IMG/VR virus record: IMGVR_UViG_2703719349_000005
Source: a virus
Taxonomy: Duplodnaviria > Heunggongvirae > Uroviricota > Caudoviricetes
Length of the DNA stretch: 37,134 nt
Reading direction: 5' to 3' (one strand)
In this document: one piece after another, positions 1 to 16,868 of the stretch
Numbering within the stretch: position 1 is the stretch's first letter
How the letters are laid out: each line of letters opens with the position of its first letter
The notes under the pieces: model-generated
What the model saw: the letters and a program-made list of their open reading frames with translations, nothing else
The model's database searches: none
What the model was told of the DNA's origin: nothing
Translations under genes and position numbers: made by a program

Positions 1-1032
1 TCAAAAACTTGCTATTGATGTTGGTAGTGTTGCCAGCGGATTAAACCGTAATGCAGTTTCCAGGTGATCCGGTGCTAGATGTGCGTAACGCATAGTCATT
101 TTTATGTCGTGATGTCCGAGGATTTTTTGCAAAGCAAGGATATTTCCACCCGACATCATAAAATGCGCCGCAAACGTATGGCGCAGAACGTGTGTCAGTT
201 GACCGCGAGGGAGCACGATAGACGTTTTTTCCATCACGGATAAAAATTGAAAATAGCAGTCTGTGAAGAAATTGAACCCATCGAGCGCCATGATCTCTTC
301 GTAAAGCTCTTTACTGATAGGGATGCTTCTGTTTTTCTTCCCCTTCGTTCTGACAAAGGTAATTCGGTATTTGGTCACCTGTGAGCGGGTAAGGTTTATT
401 GCTTCTCGCCAGCGTGCGCCTGTGCTTAAGCATATCTTGACTACCAGTGCCAGAATTGGGTCCTGACGTTTGCAATCATCCAGCAGTTCAACAATCTGCT
501 CATGGGTAAGCCATGCCATCTCTTTTTCTGCGATGGTGAATTTTCGCATGTTCTCCAGTGGGTTTGGATACGACCATTCGCCCAGGCGGGATAGTTCGCT
601 AAAAACACTACTTAGATAGCTTTGCTCCAGGTTAATGGTGACCGGGCTGGCCCCTTTCTTCCATTTCTCGCTGAAGTAGATCTCACCTGTCAGTCGTTTA
701 TCTCGATAATGGGCAAACATTTTAGATGTGAGATCGGTTGCAAGGGGATTGCCCAGAGCGTCAACCATCAGCAGCAATTTGTCATAGACATGCTGCCCAG
801 CAGTCAGAGATTTACCATGTAGTTTGAACCATAGCTCAACCACGTCTTTCAGGGTTCGACGATCTACTGATTCGCCCAGCCAGGGCTTTGCTTCGGTTTC
901 TTCCATCGTGTGACGCTCAAAAGCCAGTGCTTCGCCTTTGGTGGCGAATTGTTTACGCACACGACGCCCACTACGTCCGGCGGGGTAACATTCGCAAAGC
1001 CATTTTCCTGTGGTGAGTTTTCGTACTGCCAT
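1..1032 (-). CDS. int: Tyrosine integrase, P2/186 family (3' end runs off the window start)
   Basis: Translation has C-terminal tyrosine-recombinase motifs (LRHTFA..., HHDIKMTMRYAHL). Likely start is ATG at 1032 (MAVRKLTTGKW) with GGAGG 6-7 nt upstream on the minus strand; the longer six-frame ORF from 1110 is probably an artefact. No stop before position 1. Confidence 0.88.
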   Translation of the reverse strand: MAVRKLTTGKWLCECYPAGRSGRRVRKQFATKGEALAFERHTMEETEAKPWLGESVDRRTLKDVVELWFKLHGKSLTAGQHVYDKLLLMVDALGNPLATDLTSKMFAHYRDKRLTGEIYFSEKWKKGASPVTINLEQSYLSSVFSELSRLGEWSYPNPLENMRKFTIAEKEMAWLTHEQIVELLDDCKRQDPILALVVKICLSTGARWREAINLTRSQVTKYRITFVRTKGKKNRSIPISKELYEEIMALDGFNFFTDCYFQFLSVMEKTSIVLPRGQLTHVLRHTFAAHFMMSGGNILALQKILGHHDIKMTMRYAHLAPDHLETALRFNPLATLPTSIASF

Positions 1033-1218
1033 AAAAAATGCCCTCCAATAGAGAGCATTTTTACTGTATGTATAACCAGTGTCAATGTATGAAATCTTGC
1101 GACCATACATCTCACTGAAGCCATAATGAAGTTGGCTATTTTTTGCTATGTGAGTATGTGACTTTTGCGGTTAGCCTGCGGCTCATTGTTATATTAGGCG
1201 CAGATATAAAAGCAAAAA

Positions 1219-4776: not shown

Positions 4777-5603
4777 AAGAAATGCACCACGGAATTCATC
4801 ATTTCCATGGGACGCCTGTCTGGGGAAGTGCTGGCGACGTTCATCGTATTGCGGTGAGCGGAGCTGGTGCTTTCGTCTCCTATGTACGACCAGATCAGAT
4901 TGCGGCGTCCATTCAGCACGCTCAGGTCGTTGGCATTGATAACGGCGCATTTTCTGCATGGGGGCGTGGGCTAAAAATTAACTGGAGTGATTTTTATAAA
5001 TGGCTCCTGAACTATTACCACCATCCTAAGGTCGCTTTTTTTGTCATTCCTGATGTTGTGGACGGAGGTGAACGTGACAATGATGCCCTGATAAACGAAG
5101 TTCCGAAAATGTTCTACGGGAAGGCAACTCCCGTCTGGCATCTGCACGAGTCAATCGATCGGCTTATCGAGTTATGTCGTGAATGGCCTCGTGTCTGCTT
5201 TGGATCGTCTGGTGAATATGCGGCTATTAGAACTGCGCACTGGCATCGTCGTATGCAGGACGCTTTTGAAGCAATTTATTGCCGACACAATTTCAAAACA
5301 GCTGTTCATGGTTTGCGCATGCTTGACGGTCGTGTGTTGGGAAATTACCCACTGGCGACTGCCGACAGTACAAATCTTGCCTGCAATGTCCCCAAATTTA
5401 ATAGCAAATATCCTGAGCTTACGCGGGCTATTCAGGAGGCTGAGTATTCGCGCAATCTGACGGAAAAGGAGCTGAAAGCTGTCATTCTGAAAAACCGTTG
5501 CGCAATTTTAAAAGGTGCAATTGAAGCTGTTCGCCCACCTTCAGTTTCTGACTGGCTGTCGAATGGTTTGCAGCCTTCACAGCTCGAACTGGAGATTGCG
5601 TAA
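4773..5603 (+). CDS. Conserved phage protein, possibly TGT-fold / DpdA-like (DNA 7-deazaguanine transglycosylase-like)
   Basis: 276-aa ORF overlapping the dam stop (GTGTGA; GTG at 4773 or ATG at 4782). Weak resemblance to tRNA-guanine transglycosylase motifs: [10 protein letters not shown] (cf. DSGGFQ), [15 protein letters not shown]. No C-terminal zinc motif. The family call is tentative. Confidence 0.4.
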
Positions 5604-7975
5604 TGAACTACAGCTATTCCTGGAATGCTGAGAAAAAAGCAATCAATCCTTACGTAGAGACAGAAGAGCAATCTTCAGTTTCTGCGCTTTCAAACCTGAT
5701 CGCTCTGTACGCTGCCGATAACGAGCAGGAACACCTGCGCCGCGAGGTACTGAGTGATCAGGTCTGGGAGCGTTATTTCTTTAATGAATCCCGTGATCCT
5801 GTCCAGCGCGAAATGGAGCAGGATAAGCTCATTAGTCGGGCAAAGCTGGCGCATGAGCAGCAGCGTTTTAATCCAGATATGGTCATTCTGGCGGACGTCA
5901 ATGCCCAGCCTTCCCATATCAGCAAGCCGCTGATGCAACGTATTGAATACTTCAGCAGCCTTGGCAGGCCAAAGGCTTATTCCCGCTATTTGCGTGAGAC
6001 GATTAAGCCATGTCTGGAACGGCTGGAGCATGTACGCGACAGTCAGCTATCCACTTCTTTTCGCTTTATGGCAAGCCATGAAGGGCTGGACGGCCTGCTG
6101 ATTCTGCCTGAAATGAGTCAGGATCAGGTGAAACGCCTGTCCACCCTGGTAGCTGCGCATATGAGTATGTGCCTTGATGTAGCTTGTGGTGATTTGTATG
6201 CCACCGATGATGTTAAGCCAGAAGAAATCCGCAAGACATGGGAAAAGGTGGCTGCAGAAACCCTGCGACTGGATGTCATACCGCCTGCGTTTGAGCAACT
6301 CCGCCGGAAAAGAAACCGCCGCAAACCTGTGCCTTATGAACTCATCCCGGGTTCGCTGGCGCGTATGCTGTGCGCCGACTGGTGGTATCGGAAATTATGG
6401 AAGATGCGTTGCGAATGGCGGGAAGAGCAGTTGCGTGCTGTCTGCCTGGTCAGCAAAAAAGCATCTCCCTATGTCAGCTATGAAGCCGTGATGCATAAAC
6501 GTGAGCAGCGCCGTAAGTCGCTGGAGTTTTTCCGTTCTCATGAACTGGTGAACGAAGACGGCGACACGCTGAACATGGAGGATGTGGTAAACGCCAGCAG
6601 CAGCAACCCGGCGCATCGCCGCAACGAGATGATGGCCTGTGTTAAAGGCCTGGAGCTTATCGCGGAAATGCGTGGTGACTGCGCCGTTTTCTACACCATC
6701 ACCTGTCCGTCACGTTTCCATTCCACGCTAAATAACGGCAGGCCAAACCCGACCTGGACCAACGCGACAGTAAGACAAAGCAGTGATTATTTGGTCGGCA
6801 TGTTTGCTGCATTTCGTAAGGCGATGCACAAAGCCGGATTGCGCTGGTATGGCGTGCGGGTGGCTGAGCCGCATCATGACGGTACAGTTCACTGGCACCT
6901 GTTGTGTTTTATGCGCAAAAAAGACCGCCGCGCCATCACTGCATTACTGCGTAAGTTTGCCATTCGTGAAGACCGCGAGGAGCTGGGTAATAACACGGGA
7001 CCACGCTTTAAGTCTGAGCTGATAAACCCGCGCAAAGGTACGCCAACAAGCTACATCGCGAAATACATCAGTAAGAACATTGACGGGCGTGGTCTGGCTG
7101 GTGAGATCAGCAAGGAAACGGGTAAATCCCTGCGTGATAACGCTGAATACGTTAATGCCTGGGCGTCTCTGCATCGTGTTCAGCAATTCCGCTTCTTTGG
7201 TATTCCGGGGCGTCAGGCTTACCGTGAACTGCGATTGCTGGCTGGTCAGGCGGCAAGGCAGCAGGGGGACAAAAAAGCAGGTGCGCCGGTACTGGATAAC
7301 CCACGCCTTGATGCCATCCTGGCTGCTGCTGATGCTGGCTGTTTTGCCACCTACATCATGAAGCAGGGCGGCGTGCTGGTTCCCCGCAAATATCACCTTA
7401 TCAGAACAGCTTATGAAATTAACGAAGAGCCGACCGCCTATGGCGATCACGGTATTCGTATTTATGGCATCTGGTCACCCATTGCAGAGGGTAAGATCTG
7501 CACTCATGCAGTGAAGTGGAAAATGGTTCGTAAAGCCGTTGACGTTCAGGAGGCGGCAGCCGACCAGGGCGCTTGCGCCCCTTGGACTCGTGGCAATAAC
7601 TGTCCCCTTGCTGAAAATTTGAACCAACATGAGAAAGATGAATCAGCAGATGGGGATACCAGAACGGACATTACCTGCATGGATGACAAGGAATTGCACG
7701 ATTACCTGCACAGTATGAGCAAAAAAGAGCGCCGGGAACTGGCAGCAAGATTGCGCCTGGTTAAACCGAAACGGCGTAAAGACTACAAACAGCGAATTAC
7801 AGAGTATCAGCGTCAGCAGCTCGTCTATGAACTGAAGTCCAGAGGATTTGATGGCAGCGAGAAAGAGGTCGATTTGCTCCTTTGCGGTGGCAGTATTCCG
7901 TCAGGAGCAGGCCTGCGTATCTTCTATCGGAACCAGCGTTTGCAGGAAGATGATAAGTGGCGGAACCTGTATTAA
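5603..7975 (+). CDS. A: Replication initiation protein A (rolling-circle nickase)
   Basis: 790-aa ORF at the P2 gene A position, with HxH-type metal motif ([10 protein letters not shown]) and a tyrosine region ([11 protein letters not shown]) typical of gpA. Confidence 0.88.
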
Positions 7976-8129
7976 TCACGCGGGTTAACAATTCGTGCTC
8001 TTAATAATACCAGGCATATCAGGCTGATGAACGTAAAAAAACGTTTTACATCAGTAAGATTATTATATACTGTAAATATAAACAGTGGTTATATGTACAG
8101 TATTGCGTATGGTGTTATAGGAGGAAAGA

Positions 8130-8317
8130 TGCAGGACTATTTTTTGGAGTCTTTGAAGCTCCAGCGCATTGATTTTTTTCTTAAGCTTGTAGCGGCTAGT
8201 GAGTGTAGTGATGAAGAGAAGGGGCTAGCTCTGCAGTGGGTTTCTGAATTGACTGATGAGTTGATGGCGAAAATTCGAAGCCATGAATACAGTAGGTCGA
8301 TGGATGTAATCAGTTGA
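8130..8317 (+). CDS. Small hypothetical protein (62 aa)
   Basis: AGGAGG 5 nt before ATG at 8130; a hairpin follows downstream. AT-rich. The longer six-frame ORF from 8027 is probably upstream extension. Confidence 0.45.
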
Positions 8318-8350
8318 GCTTGTTTCGTTAGGACTTGATAAGGGAACCGA

Positions 8351-8369
8351 AAAGGGGCATTAAGCCCCT
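8351..8369. terminator. Bidirectional stem-loop between convergent genes
   Basis: AAGGGGC-attaa-GCCCCTT inverted repeat between the 8130..8317 (+) gene and the 8385..8684 (-) gene. Confidence 0.4.
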
Positions 8370-8384
8370 TTCTCATAAGTTGAT

Positions 8385-8684
8385 TTAGTTGTTACCCAAA
8401 GAGCCGGCCATGGCTGCATATTTAATTTCTTCGCTGGGTATTTCAGGATGTAGTTGAATTTGCCTGATGATATAGCCAGGAACTTCTTCACTCCACAGTT
8501 TCGCCGCGTCCTTACAGACCTTATACGCGAAGTCTCTATTCTCAAAGGCATAGGATTTTCCGTATGCATATTGCTGACAGGCATGAACATAAGCTCCGAA
8601 GTCGCCGTCTTTATCTGGCAAAGCACATCCAGCTAAGGCTATGATGATTGCTACTAACGTAAAGGAGAAAGTTATACGTTTCAT
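8385..8684 (-). CDS. Small lipoprotein (99 aa), unknown function
   Basis: Signal peptide with lipobox (MKRITFSFTLVAIIIALAGC). Confidence 0.6.
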   Translation of the reverse strand: MKRITFSFTLVAIIIALAGCALPDKDGDFGAYVHACQQYAYGKSYAFENRDFAYKVCKDAAKLWSEEVPGYIIRQIQLHPEIPSEEIKYAAMAGSLGNN

Positions 8685-8792
8685 GGTCTCTTTCTAAGCG
8701 TTTAGCATTATTTAACTAAGGGGTATCTGCCGTGATTTGGTAGTCCCTGATATATATTCTCAGGGACTATGCTGAAGTAGCTTTAATTTTGA

Positions 8793-9600
8793 TTATTTAG
8801 AAAGGTACTTATCTCTAAGTTGATTCAGTCTGTCAGCATCGCGTTCTGAAAACTCGGCGTCACCATAGATCGATTTCCCATCTGCGTCTTCAAGGCCAAT
8901 GACTGTGACGGTAAATATAGCATCAGCCGGAACTTTAAGTTTTCCCCAATCAGAGTATCTATTAGGGGCTAATTTCCAGTTGGCTTTCTCACCTGGTTCC
9001 AGACCTCCAGAAATTTTATAGTTGAAGACGTCAGAGAACCAAGGGACGCTTCTTCCTGGGCTGGCAATAACTCCTTTGAAGAATACTCTGGCAACCGCTT
9101 TGTCTGTTCCGTTTTCAACGCTAATATCCAGAATTGGCTGATCATTGCCGTAATCCTCTTTCTGGAAATAAAAACGGGAACGTTCGACCTTGAAGGCTTT
9201 CATTTTTTCCGCAGCCTGTGTTGCAGAGGTTTGTTTGGCTTCCAGTTCTTTTATTTCTTGCAGAGCCTGTTCTTTCTCTCTCTTCTCACGCTCAAGGCGA
9301 ATAGTTTGTGCGTAATTTATAACCTCATCACCAGTTTTACCTTCCAACGCTGACTTAATTTTTGTTTCGTAGACGTCCCCAGAAGACGTTCCAGCCTGCA
9401 TTAGCTCTCTCATGTTGATTTGGCTAAAGGCAACGACTTTAACTGCATCATCAAACTGAGCTTTTTTATCTGCAGGTAAGGACTCTCTTACTTTTTGAAT
9501 GGACTCTTTCATCGACTGATCGCTTGATGCATCGATCTTCGGTTTGTCACAAGCAGTAAGCAGCAGAGCAAAAGCAATTACGCCAGTTAATTTCTTCATA
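8793..9600 (-). CDS. Lipoprotein with central coiled-coil (269 aa), unknown function
   Basis: Likely start is ATG at 9600 (MKKLTGVIAFALLLTACDKP, lipobox LTAC). Central EREKREKEQALQEIKELEAKQ coiled-coil and a beta-rich C-terminal half. The six-frame ORF extends to 9671 but the lipobox start is preferred. Confidence 0.6.
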
Positions 9601-10128
9601 TCCCTATCCCAATCGTAAAAAAACAAGGCTAATCCTAACAGGATTAGCGGGCATGACAAACTCATAGCCATATAGGTGTGCTGTATAAATTAGCGGGATG
9701 AGAAAGCCTGCACAGACCCTCATGTTGAAACTTGATTTTAGCTCAAAAGAGCTGACACTAAATAACTGCGCGGAATAATGCTCCACTTTCGGTTAGCCCT
9801 TGGCCCTTGGCCCTTGCTGGGTAAGGCGTGGGGCCGTTTTCTTCGCCTGATCCTGCTGTATCTGGCCTACAGTAGGTTGTCCTTACGCGACATGCCACAT
9901 GTCAGTAAACGGCAGGTGTAGCAGTATTAGACGCAGCTATTTAGTGTGTATTAAGCTGGCTCATATTTATGACTGGTTTCAAGGTTTGACCGATTTTCAT
10001 GTCATGCATGTCTATGCTGCATGAGTTCGCATGATCGTTTGAGGATCGGTTTGGCTAAGACATGCCAGAACTGGCGGGCTTTTGCTCATGTCATGCAGGT
10101 GCATGAAAACTACTACATAAAGCGGGCA

Positions 10129-10147
10129 GGCGTGGCGGGGATACGAG
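10129..10147. other. Candidate cos (cohesive-end) site
   Basis: GGCGTGGCGGGGATACGAG shares its first 13 nt with the recalled 186 cohesive end (GGCGTGGCGGGGAAAGCAT; P2 GGCGAGGCGGGGAAAGCAC). Lies in a ~670-bp non-coding region at the expected map position between the A-side cargo and Q. Confidence 0.45.
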
Positions 10148-10273
10148 CGCGCGCTTAAGGATAAATTGAAGTTGATTTAATTTTTCGACATGGATAATCT
10201 TAACTACGTATGATTATTGATAAAAAATAAACATAAACAATTGTAGCGGATCTTAAAACTTATTAGGATTAGT

Positions 10274-11335
10274 ATGCTTAAAACAAATAAGGTATTTATT
10301 GACACACAAACGTACGTAAAGGCTGGTCTTCATTTTGAGGGGGTAGCATTTAAAGCTTTCCATGAATTATGTGCGAAAGGTGATTTAGTCTTAATTACAA
10401 CTACAGTTGTAGAGAGAGAAGTAAAAGGTAAAATAGAGGAATCAATAAAGGATGCTCTGCAGGCTATAAACACAGTACAAAGAAAAGCTAGGCTTTTGAA
10501 TAGTATTGATAATGGACCGCTCCATGATTTTTTTCAGCAATTTAACGAACATGAAATTCACGAAGCAGCACAAAAAGTTTTTGATGATTTTTTGAAAGGA
10601 TGTCACGCCAAATTAGCTACAATAGAAGTGATAGATCTTAATGAGGTTTTAGATAAATACTTTGGCAAAGAACCACCATTTGGGCAAAATAAGAAAAAAA
10701 GTGAGTTTCCTGATGCAATCACTTTAGCTGCGGTAGAGCGATTTGTTAATGATGAAGATGTGTATATCATTTCTGAGGATAGTGACTTAAAAAATTATTG
10801 TGATGGTAAAAACAATCTTCATCAAATTGATTCACTTGATAAGTTTCTAGGTGAATACAATACGCATACAAACGAATTAAGTAATAAATTGATGCAGTTT
10901 ATCGAAAGCAAACGTGAAGACATAAGAGCGGACGTAATTGCCCAACTCAATGATGCCGATGGATATAACGTTTCAACTTGGGAAGACGCTGAATTGGATT
11001 CATTTGAAGTCGTCAATATTGATGACTTTGAACCATCAATAATTAAGATTAACAATAATTATTGTCTAGCGACCTTCTCTGTTTCTGTAGATTTTGAAGT
11101 TACTGTTTCTGGTCCAGACTTTAATAATGGGTATTGGGATAGCGAAGATAAAGTAATGATTCCAATGGAGACAACCACACGAACTGAAGTTCAAGAGATT
11201 AGTTTCGATATTGAAATTGAAGTTATGTATGAAATCGAGGATGGTGAATTAACAGATATCGCATTTGATGTGAATATTGATAAGTTATCCCGAGGGATTG
11301 AGTTCTCTATTGAAGAAAATAATTTTGAATATTAA
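10274..11335 (+). CDS. PIN-like nuclease-domain protein with acidic C-terminal domain (353 aa); candidate defence / exclusion cargo
   Basis: N-terminal VFIDTQ (Asp in strand 1), VVEREV, SEFPDAITLAAV and ISEDSDL acidic motifs are consistent with a PIN fold. C-terminal ~180 aa is D/E-rich and beta-rich. Very AT-rich. Confidence 0.5.
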   Translation: MLKTNKVFIDTQTYVKAGLHFEGVAFKAFHELCAKGDLVLITTTVVEREVKGKIEESIKDALQAINTVQRKARLLNSIDNGPLHDFFQQFNEHEIHEAAQKVFDDFLKGCHAKLATIEVIDLNEVLDKYFGKEPPFGQNKKKSEFPDAITLAAVERFVNDEDVYIISEDSDLKNYCDGKNNLHQIDSLDKFLGEYNTHTNELSNKLMQFIESKREDIRADVIAQLNDADGYNVSTWEDAELDSFEVVNIDDFEPSIIKINNNYCLATFSVSVDFEVTVSGPDFNNGYWDSEDKVMIPMETTTRTEVQEISFDIEIEVMYEIEDGELTDIAFDVNIDKLSRGIEFSIEENNFEY

Positions 11336-11372
11336 TTCGTTCATAACGGCATCATTGTGATGCCGTTGGGTT

Positions 11373-12401
11373 TTATAATGTATATATTTCAAAATTTATA
11401 ATTTCATGACCAAGCCATCTGTTTATTTCCATGAATCTTTTTTGAAGTGGTAATAGTTCATTTCTTACGAAGATGCAGCTCGCCTTCTCCACATCACCAA
11501 AACCCCCAACATTATTCGGCAAAATTCCCATCATCTGAGGCGGTACGCGGTGTGCCGCCATCATGTCATCACGGCTGACGTTCTTGATGCTCAGAAATTC
11601 ATCCTTCGCCGCGACTTCTGACAACGGGATGATCTGAAGCCCGTCCTTTTTGCCGTTAGGCGAGTACATAAACAGGTTGCGGAAGTTGCCAGGGCCTTTG
11701 GCGCTTTTCATCGCATTGCGGAGGTTGTTCACATCCTCCTGGTTCTGCGCGGCATCGGTCATGTACATGATGAAGCCTGCATGGCTGCCGTTAATGTAAT
11801 ACTTCCGGCGGAACAGCGTGGCGGACTCGTTGAGCAGGGCTGACGGAATGGCAGAAAGATAACCTGGTAGGCCGTAGATCTCCTGGTTGATGTCAGGTTC
11901 CATCAGATGAAAAATGCTGCCTTTCGTGAACTGATACGGCTGGGTTGTCATACCGTATTGCACAAACCAGTAGGTATCCAGGTCTAACCCGCGTCGGGTG
12001 TATTTTGCCAGAGCAGGCTCAAGGGCGATAACTTCACCGAAGCGGTTCGTGCGTTTCTCCAGGTAGGCGTTACCAAATACCAGATAGTCCTGCACAAAAC
12101 GTGAAAAAGCCTGCTGGCTGAGCAGCGGGTGAGGGATGTAGGTACTGGTCAGAATGTTGCACTTTACTGCAATCGGAGAACTGTGATGCACGGCGGCGCG
12201 GAAGGTGCGCGCCAGTCCGTCAAAGCTGACGGGCGGCTCATACCAACGGTCCATCTGTACGCATTCCACATAGTCCAGCAGTTCACGGCGGTCCAGAACA
12301 GGAACGGGATCACCGAAGCTGAATGCTTCGGCTGAAGTCTGGCTTTTATGCTGGATCTGGTTCGTCGACGCAGCGCGGTTCTTCTTACTCTTTCCCATCA
12401 A
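11373..12401 (-). CDS. Q: Portal protein (gpQ)
   Basis: 342-aa ORF at the P2 Q position, upstream overlap with terminase gene P on the same strand. Confidence 0.88.
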   Translation of the reverse strand: MMGKSKKNRAASTNQIQHKSQTSAEAFSFGDPVPVLDRRELLDYVECVQMDRWYEPPVSFDGLARTFRAAVHHSSPIAVKCNILTSTYIPHPLLSQQAFSRFVQDYLVFGNAYLEKRTNRFGEVIALEPALAKYTRRGLDLDTYWFVQYGMTTQPYQFTKGSIFHLMEPDINQEIYGLPGYLSAIPSALLNESATLFRRKYYINGSHAGFIMYMTDAAQNQEDVNNLRNAMKSAKGPGNFRNLFMYSPNGKKDGLQIIPLSEVAAKDEFLSIKNVSRDDMMAAHRVPPQMMGILPNNVGGFGDVEKASCIFVRNELLPLQKRFMEINRWLGHEIINFEIYTL

Positions 12402-14164
12402 AAAATCTCCACAATATTACTGGTATTGGCGGACTCGCCCTGCAGTGGTTCGTTAAACAGTGCGTGCATTGTTGCCCAGGCCAGATCGGCGTGGCTGGCT
12501 TCTTCGCTGCGGCTGGCTTCATAGGTCGGGCGGTTGCCGCTGGCGGTGGTTGCGCGACGGATTGCCATGAATGACTGCGCAATGTCGGTGTGTCCGGCGT
12601 CAAACTCCAGACGGCGGTGGCTGATAATGTCGTAGGCCTTGAGTACCAGGGCGTTTTTAACGTTGGGGTTGTAGACAAACTCCCGGACGGCAGGAAAGAA
12701 CGCTTTCACGTTCTCATAAACCCCGTGACCGACACCTGTCGAGTCGATGCCGATATATGTCACGTTGTACTGTTCGGTCAGTTTTTTGATGGCGTCCGCC
12801 TGGGCGCGGAAGTCCATCCCGCGCCACTGGTGACGCTCAAGAATACGGAACTTACCGCCCGGCACGGCTGGCGGAGCCACCACCACGCATCCGGCACTGT
12901 CGCCGTTCTGCGTACCTTTTGCCGGGTCATAACCGATCCACACTTCGCGCCAGCCAAACGGGCGCAGCGCCAGTGCATGAAAGTCGGTCCAGACTTCCCA
13001 GCTGTCCACCATGCACGCCTGCAATTCGCTGAGCGGGAACACAGATGCGAGATCGTCAACGAACTCGCACATCAGCAGGTTCTGGTATTCGTCCGGGCTG
13101 TACTCCATGCGCAACTGGTCGAGGTCGAACAGGTTACAGCCGCCGCGTACCGCATCTTCCACGGTGACTATCTGGCGGTATTGCCCGTCTGCGCACAGCA
13201 GGCCGGGGGCCAGATTGCTGTGGGACAGGTCGATGTCCACCTTATCGGCTTTGTTGCGCCCACGGTTGAACAACGCGCCGGACCAGAACGGATAAGCACT
13301 GTGGGTCAGGCTGGATGGCGTGGAAAAATAGGTCTGTCGCCATTTCTTGTGAATAGCCATACCGGAAGCCACTTTGCGCAGCTCCTGAAATTTTGGTATC
13401 CAGAAATATTCATCCAGATACAGGTTGCCGTGATAACTCTGGGCCGTGCGGGCATTGGTGCCTAGGAAGTAAAGCGTGGCCCCGTTAGGAAGCACCATCG
13501 GATCGCCTTTCAGCTCCACCTCCACTTCTTTGGCGAAGTCGATGATGTACTGCTTAAAGACGTGGGCCTGTGCCTTACTGGCGGAAAGGAAAATCTGGTT
13601 ACGCCCGGTAAGCAGAGCGTCAATCAGGGCTTCACGGGCAAAGTAAAAGGTTGCGCCGATCTGGCGTGACTTCAGCAGGTTGCGGATGCGGTTGGTTTTT
13701 CCGGCTTCCCACCAGTGGCGCTGGTAGTTGAACATGGAGGAATGGAAGATTTCTTCCAGCTTCTCAATCTGTTCATCGGTGAAGACATTCTTTTCCGGCT
13801 GACGGCGTGGGCCTTTGTTGCGGTTGGCGACGTTAGGGTTTAAGTCGGCTTCGTTGCCGCCATTGTTAAACTTGCCGATCCGCGCGTGGCGTTCCGACTG
13901 GCGCGCCAGCAGGTCAATCTCTTTGAAATCTTTCCCTTCTTTGTGCTCCTTCATAATGAGCTGGCAGTAGCGTGCGGCGGTGGTGAGCTGCATCTGATCC
14001 AGCGGCCCATAGTCACCCCACTTGTCGCGTTTTTTCCAGCTGTGAACGGTTGCAACTTTCTCGCCCAGCATTTCAGCAATGCGGGCTACGCGGTATCCCT
14101 GAAAGTACAGCAGCATGGCCTGCCGACGGGGATCGAGATCTGCGGGTGTCAGTGTGGTGTTCAT
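12398..14164 (-). CDS. P: Terminase large (ATPase) subunit (gpP)
   Basis: 588-aa ORF matching P2 gpP in size, position and Q-P arrangement; starts divergently from O. Confidence 0.88.
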   Translation of the reverse strand: MNTTLTPADLDPRRQAMLLYFQGYRVARIAEMLGEKVATVHSWKKRDKWGDYGPLDQMQLTTAARYCQLIMKEHKEGKDFKEIDLLARQSERHARIGKFNNGGNEADLNPNVANRNKGPRRQPEKNVFTDEQIEKLEEIFHSSMFNYQRHWWEAGKTNRIRNLLKSRQIGATFYFAREALIDALLTGRNQIFLSASKAQAHVFKQYIIDFAKEVEVELKGDPMVLPNGATLYFLGTNARTAQSYHGNLYLDEYFWIPKFQELRKVASGMAIHKKWRQTYFSTPSSLTHSAYPFWSGALFNRGRNKADKVDIDLSHSNLAPGLLCADGQYRQIVTVEDAVRGGCNLFDLDQLRMEYSPDEYQNLLMCEFVDDLASVFPLSELQACMVDSWEVWTDFHALALRPFGWREVWIGYDPAKGTQNGDSAGCVVVAPPAVPGGKFRILERHQWRGMDFRAQADAIKKLTEQYNVTYIGIDSTGVGHGVYENVKAFFPAVREFVYNPNVKNALVLKAYDIISHRRLEFDAGHTDIAQSFMAIRRATTASGNRPTYEASRSEEASHADLAWATMHALFNEPLQGESANTSNIVEIF

Positions 14165-16217: not shown

Positions 16218-16868
16218 ATGAGCCTGAGTCCCGCACGGCAGCATCGCCTGCGCGTTCAGGCTGAACAGGCCGCCCGCGAGGGCGGCAGTGTTCGCCACGC
16301 ATCGGGCTATGACCTGATGCTGCTGCAACTGGCGGAAGACCGCCGCCGTCTCAAGGGCGTTCAGTCCACGGTCAAAAAAGCGGAAATCAAGGTGGAGCTG
16401 CTGCCGAAGTACGCCGCCTGGGCAGAGGGTGTCCTGGCTGCCGGAGGCGCTCAACAGGATGACGTGCTGATGTACGTGATGCTGTGGCGCATTGATGCCG
16501 GAGATTATGCCGGGGCGCTGGAGATCGGGCGTCATGCCCTGCGTCATGGCTGGGTGATGCCGCTGGGTAACCGCAACGTGCAGACCGTGCTGGCAGAGGA
16601 AATGGCAGACGCCGCGCAGAGCGCAATGCTTGCCGCCACCGGCTTTGATGCCGATCTGTTGTTGCAGACGCTGGAGCTGACAGACGGTCTGGATATGCCG
16701 GACCAGTCACGGGCGCGTCTGCATAAAGCGATTGGCGCAGTCCTGAGTGAAAGCAATCCGGCTTCCGCCCTTAATCATCTCAACCATGCGTTACAGCTTG
16801 ATCCCCGCTGTGGCGTGAAAAAAGACAAACAGCAGCTGGAGCGCAGACTGCGCAATGACAGCCGCTGA
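16218..16868 (+). CDS. M: Terminase small / endonuclease subunit (gpM)
   Basis: Translation (MSLSPARQHRLRVQ...QDDVLMYVMLWRIDAGDYAGALEIGRHALRHG...) resembles P2 gpM. Confidence 0.85.
   Translation: MSLSPARQHRLRVQAEQAAREGGSVRHASGYDLMLLQLAEDRRRLKGVQSTVKKAEIKVELLPKYAAWAEGVLAAGGAQQDDVLMYVMLWRIDAGDYAGALEIGRHALRHGWVMPLGNRNVQTVLAEEMADAAQSAMLAATGFDADLLLQTLELTDGLDMPDQSRARLHKAIGAVLSESNPASALNHLNHALQLDPRCGVKKDKQQLERRLRNDSR

Follow-up and report, generated by a model that had tools for sequence, protein, structure and literature searches.

Terminases of the P2 group cut DNA at a cohesive-end packaging site (cos) that leaves 19-nt 5′ cohesive ends, as in P2, 186 and P4; P2 terminase acts on monomeric circles. 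In P2 and 186, the portal gene lies within about 190 bp of cos. In PMC5694545 and PMC9594776, a 55-bp cos core common to P2 and P4 is credited to Ziermann & Calendar 1990. The region gpA-cos-gpQ is described as an accessory-gene hotspot beside cos in Rousset et al. 2022 (PMC9122126), and a slot between cos and the portal gene was noted by Dodd & Egan 1996 and by Nakayama 1999, as cited in PMC5694545.

We analysed a stretch of 37,134 nucleotides (IMG/VR virus record IMGVR_UViG_2703719349_000005), hereafter termed the window. The whole stretch is a P2-like (Fels-2/186-type) E. coli prophage; at the DNA level it is closest to E. coli prophages and to Fels-2-like phages of Salmonella, Klebsiella and Yersinia. 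It encodes an integrase (1-1110, minus strand), a gpA replication endonuclease (5603-7975, plus strand), a gpQ-like portal protein (11373-12401, minus strand; Pfam Phage_portal), a gpP-like large terminase (12398-14164, minus strand; Pfam Terminase_5, Terminase_6N and Terminase_6C) and a P2-type, gpM-like small terminase (16218-16868, plus strand; Pfam Phage_term_smal, E=2.2e-40). The gene order gpA, cargo, cos, cargo, portal, TerL, TerS was the same in 75 related contigs. The original prediction had pointed to cos-like sequence and repeated motifs in a gap of ~670 bp between a lipoprotein gene and a PIN gene. The gap is real; it measures 674 bp, from the ATG of a DUF6694 lipoprotein gene at 9599 to the start of a PIN_12 gene at 10274.

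Sequence comparison identifies 10005-10154, within this gap, as very probably the cos site of a P2-family prophage of Fels-2/186 type. A profile HMM was built from 83 P2/186/P4-type cos regions, with all Fels-2-type sequences left out. It gave a single match in the window, at 9995-10155 (nhmmer; 100 bits, E=2.2e-30). The cos-like character first ascribed to the gap was borne out by alignment with the joined ends of the P2 and 186 records, in which cohesive ends are annotated, and with the P4 ends: the alignment was gap-free from TGCAT-AAAAC through AAGCGGGC, the 19-mer and GCGCGC. The 19-mer at 10129-10147 (plus strand), GGCGTGGCGGGGATACGAG, aligned base for base with annotated cosL of P2 and cos of 186, and is the predicted cohesive-end sequence. 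It is G-rich and homologous to the P2-family form GGCG(A/T)GGCGGGGA..., and its 13 leading bases are identical to those of the 186 end (13/13), as stated in the original prediction. The tail of the overhang reads ATACGAG, versus AAAGCAT in 186 and AAAGCAC in P2, the differences falling at base 14 and within bases 16-19; the last six bases are thus TACGAG here and AAGCAT in 186. With up to one mismatch allowed, the 13-mer GGCGNGGCGGGGA occurred once in 37 kb. Because ~0.25 such matches are expected in 37 kb, the 13-mer alone is only suggestive.

The site also has the position and the core of P2-family cos sites. As in P2-like phages, it lies between accessory genes on the gpA side and the 3′ end of the portal gene, with the gpP and gpM genes of the terminase close by, and it shares with P2, 186 and P4 the core TGCAT-AAAAC...AAGCGGGC followed by the 19-mer and GCGCGC, together with upstream GCAT boxes at -123, -110 and -100. 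When measured here, the stretch common to P2 and P4, from TGCATTAAAAC to GCGCGC, was exactly 55 bp, in agreement with the reported core; its equivalent in the window is 10100-10154 (plus strand; -29 to +26). Unlike P2 and 186, the window has a 1.06-kb PIN_12 gene between cos and the portal gene. A lambda-type cos (cosN/cosB) was considered as an alternative assignment and was rejected, homology being to P2/186/P4 only.

Conservation among relatives was examined in 80 IMG/VR viral contigs that were picked solely for encoding a close relative of the portal protein. Seventy-five carried the 19-mer, as GGCGTGGCGGGGATACGA(G/T); it was identical in 71 and ended in T in the other 4. The five contigs that did not carry it were truncated. 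In all 75 contigs the 19-mer was downstream of the portal gene, at a distance of 183-3524 bp; the distance from cos to the portal stop is 1225 bp in the window, which has the PIN variant. When 72 unique IMG/VR relatives were anchored on the 19-mer, column conservation collapsed to the left of 10005 and to the right of 10154. The conserved block (10005-10154, plus strand) therefore comprises 124 bp to the left of the 19-mer, the 19-mer itself and 7 bp to the right. Its left edge coincides with the first of the boxes described below, and its right edge with the end of the 55-bp core.

The putative cos of Felsduovirus members (Fels-2, SEN8, RE-2010, SopEPhi, and Klebsiella and Yersinia relatives) shows 84-92% identity to the 150-bp block. 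The window differs from these relatives in its cargo on both sides, in three substitutions in the arm of a dyad, and in a miniature inverted-repeat transposable element (MITE) 60 bp to the left. The record of Salmonella phage SEN8 starts at the homologous 19 nt, annotated 'putative cos site', and Cartapus is annotated likewise. A cos at this site is thus an ordinary, well-known feature class, already annotated (as putative) in close relatives. Degradation of the dyad upstream of the core in this lineage would fit a relic, i.e., a cos sequence left in a prophage that has become defective or has ceased to use this site for packaging. However, the family consensus is retained in every box, in the 55-bp core and in the 19-mer, the ORFs for gpA, the portal and both terminase subunits are full length, and about 20 E. 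coli genomes carry the block at 99-100% identity. We consider decay of the site very unlikely, and a cos of the P2 family is the preferred reading.

By homology with P2, 186 and P4, the phage's own terminase (gpM-like and gpP-like subunits) would recognise 10005-10154 on replicated circular DNA. Two nicks 19 bp apart, at 10128/10129 on the top strand and at 10147/10148 on the bottom strand, would yield a linear genome with 5′-protruding GGCGTGGCGGGGATACGAG ends. The left virion end would start at 10129 and lead into the PIN_12 gene and then the portal gene; the right end would bear the lipoprotein module. Homology with P2/186/P4 cos thus predicts the orientation proposed originally, in which the PIN gene occupies the left end and the lipoprotein the right end. 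Recognition would most likely proceed via GCAT/TGCAT boxes at -124, -111, -101, -36 (inverted) and -29, and the AAAAC...AAGCGGGC stretch of the 55-bp core is most likely also part of it. Placement of the predicted virion ends helps annotation and genome orientation, and placement of cos helps to recognise two flanking cargo slots that carry anti-phage and other accessory genes.

Box offsets were counted from the first base of the 19-mer. Three direct boxes, TGCAT at 10005, TGCAT at 10018 and cGCAT at 10028 (block 10005-10032, plus strand), are located at -124, -111 and -101. An inverted pair, ATGCA-GG-TGCAT (10093-10104, plus strand), is located at -36 and -29 and overlaps the left edge of the 55-bp core. 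The three-box pattern had one match in the window, namely the cos boxes, versus 0.04 expected. We surveyed the boxes in 91 non-redundant cos regions of P2/P4-like type, drawn from viral and genome contigs and from reference phages; a degenerate cos pattern run over the genome contigs gave mostly chance matches in GC-rich genomes, and a handful of true P2-like sites were usable. TGCAT was present at -124 in 38, at -111 in 60 and at -101 in 58 of the 91 regions, and inverted ATGCA was present at -36 in 53. The figure for TGCAT at -29 (85/91) is biased by the selection filter of the set. GCAT occupied all four direct positions (-123, -110, -100 and -28) in 46 regions and the last three in 74, and the interval from -88 to -45 was nearly box-free across the set. 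At two Stenotrophomonas loci (L058 and L059), GCAG replaced GCAT together at -110/-111, -100/-101, -36 and -28. Such a concerted change is expected if one protein reads all boxes, and it suggests linked evolution of the repeated boxes. The overhang ends of these two loci also differ, reading GGCGTGGCGGGGAGAC(A/G)AG.

The gpM-like small terminase is the presumed reader of the cos boxes, and we infer that it binds them. Positional conservation points to a small-terminase binding array that may play the part of cosB in lambda. In lambda cos (cosQ-cosN-cosB, with R-site repeats for gpNu1), the nicking site likewise has several copies of one short motif on one side; the resemblance is functional only, there being no sequence similarity, a 12-nt overhang in lambda versus 19 nt here, and a different box motif and spacing. 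That the boxes form a gpM recognition array across the whole P2/P4 family, as a cosB equivalent not explicitly defined so far, is a tentative proposal that we regard as possible but rather doubtful; the array may already be described in earlier P2/P4 literature. If the proposal is true, cargo exchange in nature has amounted to a 'deletion mapping' of the functional cos, to exactly -124..+26, and the switch from GCAT to GCAG in Stenotrophomonas phages marks co-evolution of boxes and terminase specificity. The family-wide phasing of the boxes is the one mildly new element here and refines a known system. The box pattern provides a hypothesis of cos recognition by P2-type terminases that is inexpensive to test, and is relevant to P2/P4 cosmid delivery.

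Between the two groups of boxes, a GC-rich dyad centred at about -60 and followed by TTTTGC (10058-10085, plus strand) has a left arm degraded by three substitutions. The Fels-2-type consensus of the dyad is GCCCGCCAG-AA-CTGGCGGGC-TTTTGC, and the window reads GACATGCCAG..CTGGCGGGC. The consensus resembles an intrinsic terminator, and a terminator-like scan match was found at 10063-10076 in the window. A dyad centred at -60/-62 was present in 33 of the 91 cos regions, and a T-rich tail in 7; perfect stems of at least 6 bp were found at the dyad in 17 regions, versus about 4 expected. The dyad was rejected as a universal cos element. It is optional, because P2 has none and only about one third of the family (33/91) has one.

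To the left of cos, beyond a spacer specific to the lipoprotein cargo module (9945-10004; not cos), the ~187-bp segment 9758-9944 (no strand assigned) is, judging from its termini and relatives, an IS630-family MITE related to ISEc33, and is neither part of cos nor a packaging signal. A repeat search revealed a 40-nt imperfect inverted repeat, 78% complementary, with arms at 9755-9794 and 9908-9947. The ends of the element match the ends of ISEc33 at 19/20 positions on the left and 32/34 on the right, and the ISEc33 terminus pattern matched the window at only two places, 9758 and 9944, one per strand. IS630-type elements duplicate a TA target, typically in CTAG. The target of the window copy is CTAG, and TA flanks the copy at 9759-9760 and 9942-9943. 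The flanks C-TA ... TA-G were found in the window copy and in two further copies (L208 and L210), and a third copy (L209) has A-TA ... TA-G. Terminal inverted repeats, TA flanks in CTAG, the length and the lack of a transposase are shared with MITEs of IS630-type origin. Unlike ISEc33, the element has an unrelated interior, and its copy number is low, about 1 per genome.

Homologues of the element with 66-83% identity and sharp boundaries were found in unrelated chromosomal, plasmid and prophage loci, namely an Rhs locus, a fimbrial island, phage-plasmids, a lambdoid prophage and Shigella phage SfII. Individual copies measure 164-187 bp. Diverged copies were present in ~154 of 5426 complete E. 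coli genomes (median, 1 copy per genome) and also on plasmids of several Enterobacteriaceae. The empty site expected for the window copy is a CTAG site, AGCTGACAC-TA-GTGTGTATT. No empty site was found for the window copy in the viral or metagenome contigs searched, nor for the Rhs-linked copy in the E. coli genomes searched. The element is putatively mobile. As far as we found, this MITE has no published name. In the E. coli phage-plasmid pEC21Z048-103K (L210, 5001-6760), a diverged copy adjoins an integrase fragment and follows a TnpB/InsQ gene at a distance of ~420 bp; this proximity is probably coincidental.

The element folds better than shuffled sequence on both strands (z = -3.0 and -3.6), and a promoter-like site is present at 9752-9779. 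These features, together with the low copy number and the lack of an empty site for the window and Rhs-linked copies in the contigs and genomes searched, would also suit a function for the element within the lipoprotein cargo, as a structured RNA or a DNA hairpin site, for instance a regulatory sRNA or a recombination site. However, an Rfam search of 9400-10400 gave no match at E<=1, and the stability of the fold is explained by the 40-nt terminal inverted repeats, which match both ends of an IS630-family IS. The TA flanks in CTAG fit an IS630-type insertion, the interior tolerates length changes of 7 or 14 nt, and the copies occur in mutually unrelated contexts. A structured RNA or hairpin site is therefore improbable, and we treat 9758-9944 as a MITE.

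The original prediction also listed several repeated motifs of the gap as possible terminase recognition elements. The motifs exist. GCCCTTG is present three times at 9796-9816 (plus strand) as a true tandem repeat (TRF period 7, 3.0 copies, 100% matches); both copies of CATGTCATGCA are present, at 9998-10008 and 10087-10097, as is the palindrome GACATG-N3-CATGTC at 9889-9903. Two positions needed correction: GGCGTGGGGCC, reported near 9826, starts at 9825, and of the two copies of GACATGCCA, both of which are present, the second is at 10059-10067 instead of 10049-10057. The triple GCCCTTG, GGCGTGGGGCC and the GACATG palindrome (which includes the first GACATGCCA) all lie within the MITE. The proposed role in terminase recognition did not hold up in the comparison, since the listed repeats are mostly internal to the MITE and absent from relatives with the same cos. 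MITE copies at other loci keep the GGCGTGGGGCC stretch, so its resemblance to cos is a coincidence.

The individual motifs have separate origins. GCCCTTG forms a 7-bp VNTR inside the MITE; its copy number is 1, 2 or 3 in relatives with the same flanks and 1 in other MITE families, and one variant copy reads GCTCTTG. A 47-aa ORF at 9778-9921 and other small ORFs in the gap were rejected as genes, because the 7- and 14-nt repeat variants and other MITE copies break the frame; the window copy of the MITE has a single ORF, which these length variants disrupt. The 6-bp GACATG palindrome is weakly significant at best. No function was assigned to the palindrome GACATGccaCATGTC, which is not kept in other MITE families. 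The second GACATGCCA was created by the three lineage-specific substitutions in the left arm of the dyad, and the pair of these 9-mers is at chance level (for any 9-mer, ~0.9 pairs would be expected in 681 bp). Chance is an unlikely source of the 11/12-mer pair TCATGTCATGCA, with roughly 0.01-0.05 pairs expected in 681 bp, and 5 of its bases are the conserved functional box. In each CATGTCATGCA copy, the ATGCA/TGCAT portion alone falls on a conserved box.

The exact 12-mer TCATGTCATGCA lies inside a 20-nt direct repeat at 9997-10016 and 10086-10105 (17/20 identical). The first copy spans the point at which the left cargo meets the first cos box; the second is at the -36 box, where the form TATGTCATGCA is a common family variant. 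Recombination between cos boxes might have left the junction copy as a scar.

A broader version of the same idea is that the whole of 9780-10160 is an extended packaging signal in which all listed motifs are read by the terminase. The motifs are within about 350 bp of the cos 19-mer, and accounts of P2/P4 cosmids report better transduction with flanks beyond the 55-bp core. However, relatives that share the 19-mer exactly, along with the terminase and portal genes, have unrelated sequence to the left of 10005. The element that hosts the motifs recurs beside Rhs, fimbrial, phage-plasmid and lambdoid tail-fibre genes, far from cos; GCCCTTG is found in anywhere from 1 to 3 copies; and the second GACATGCCA is a dyad arm as altered in this lineage. 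These sequence comparisons largely refute an extended signal, which we consider extremely unlikely. Most of the special-looking motifs of the gap appear to reflect insertion of a transposable element and not packaging signals, and the predicted cos remains 10005-10154.

Different cargo flanks cos on each side. On the left (gpA) side, the DUF6694 lipoprotein gene (8793-9599, minus strand; Pfam DUF6694, E=3.5e-22) has its ATG start codon at 9599 and encodes a signal peptide and the lipobox MKKLTGVIAFALLLTAC; RefSeq gives the DUF6694 lipoprotein annotation in relatives too. On the right, between cos and the portal gene, is the PIN_12 gene (10274-11335, plus strand; Pfam PIN_12, E=1.8e-25). Most relatives have DinI/Tum-like genes in place of the lipoprotein module. 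One E. coli relative (L005) has the same left module, 100% identical up to ~10155, and three unrelated genes to the right, and another (L006) has the same PIN gene and DinI-like genes to the left. Since these two relatives swap opposite sides, cos is flanked by two independently exchangeable cargo slots, and the breakpoints in both are the edges of the cos block, -124 and +26. There is no essential difference from the known gpA-gpQ hotspot; what is seen here is the independent swapping of the two slots, with breakpoints at -124/+26.

The left cargo module (8027-9599) comprises the lipoprotein gene and hypothetical ORFs at 8027-8317 (plus strand) and 8385-8684 (minus strand). In some E. coli relatives (H46 and H47) it carries an IS1 insertion. 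A minus-strand terminator-like hairpin, GCTAATCCT-GTT-AGGATTAGC followed by a T run, is present within 9618-9697, overlapping a promoter-like site; it precedes the start codon of the lipoprotein gene by only ~20-50 nt. Two copies of ATTAGCGGG occur here, at 9643 and 9689. The hairpin may be an attenuator or insulator. The PIN_12 protein (353 aa) has a weak DUF7339 match and recurs with a different left cargo in L006. PADLOC gave no match for the PIN_12 gene, the lipoprotein gene or the two small cargo ORFs. The slot often carries anti-phage genes, and the PIN_12 protein is a candidate product of an uncharacterised defence or exclusion gene. The right cargo module seems to extend through a terminator hairpin at 11347-11369 into the portal gene, taking in its last ~25 codons, which are AT-rich. 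The C-terminus of the portal protein reads ..LPLQKRFMEINRWLGHEIINFEIYTL in the window and L006 versus ..KPLQQRIREVNNWLHDDVIKFQDYSL in L005 (window, 11336-11450; L005, 7005-7130), which places the swap boundary inside the portal gene and not at its stop codon.
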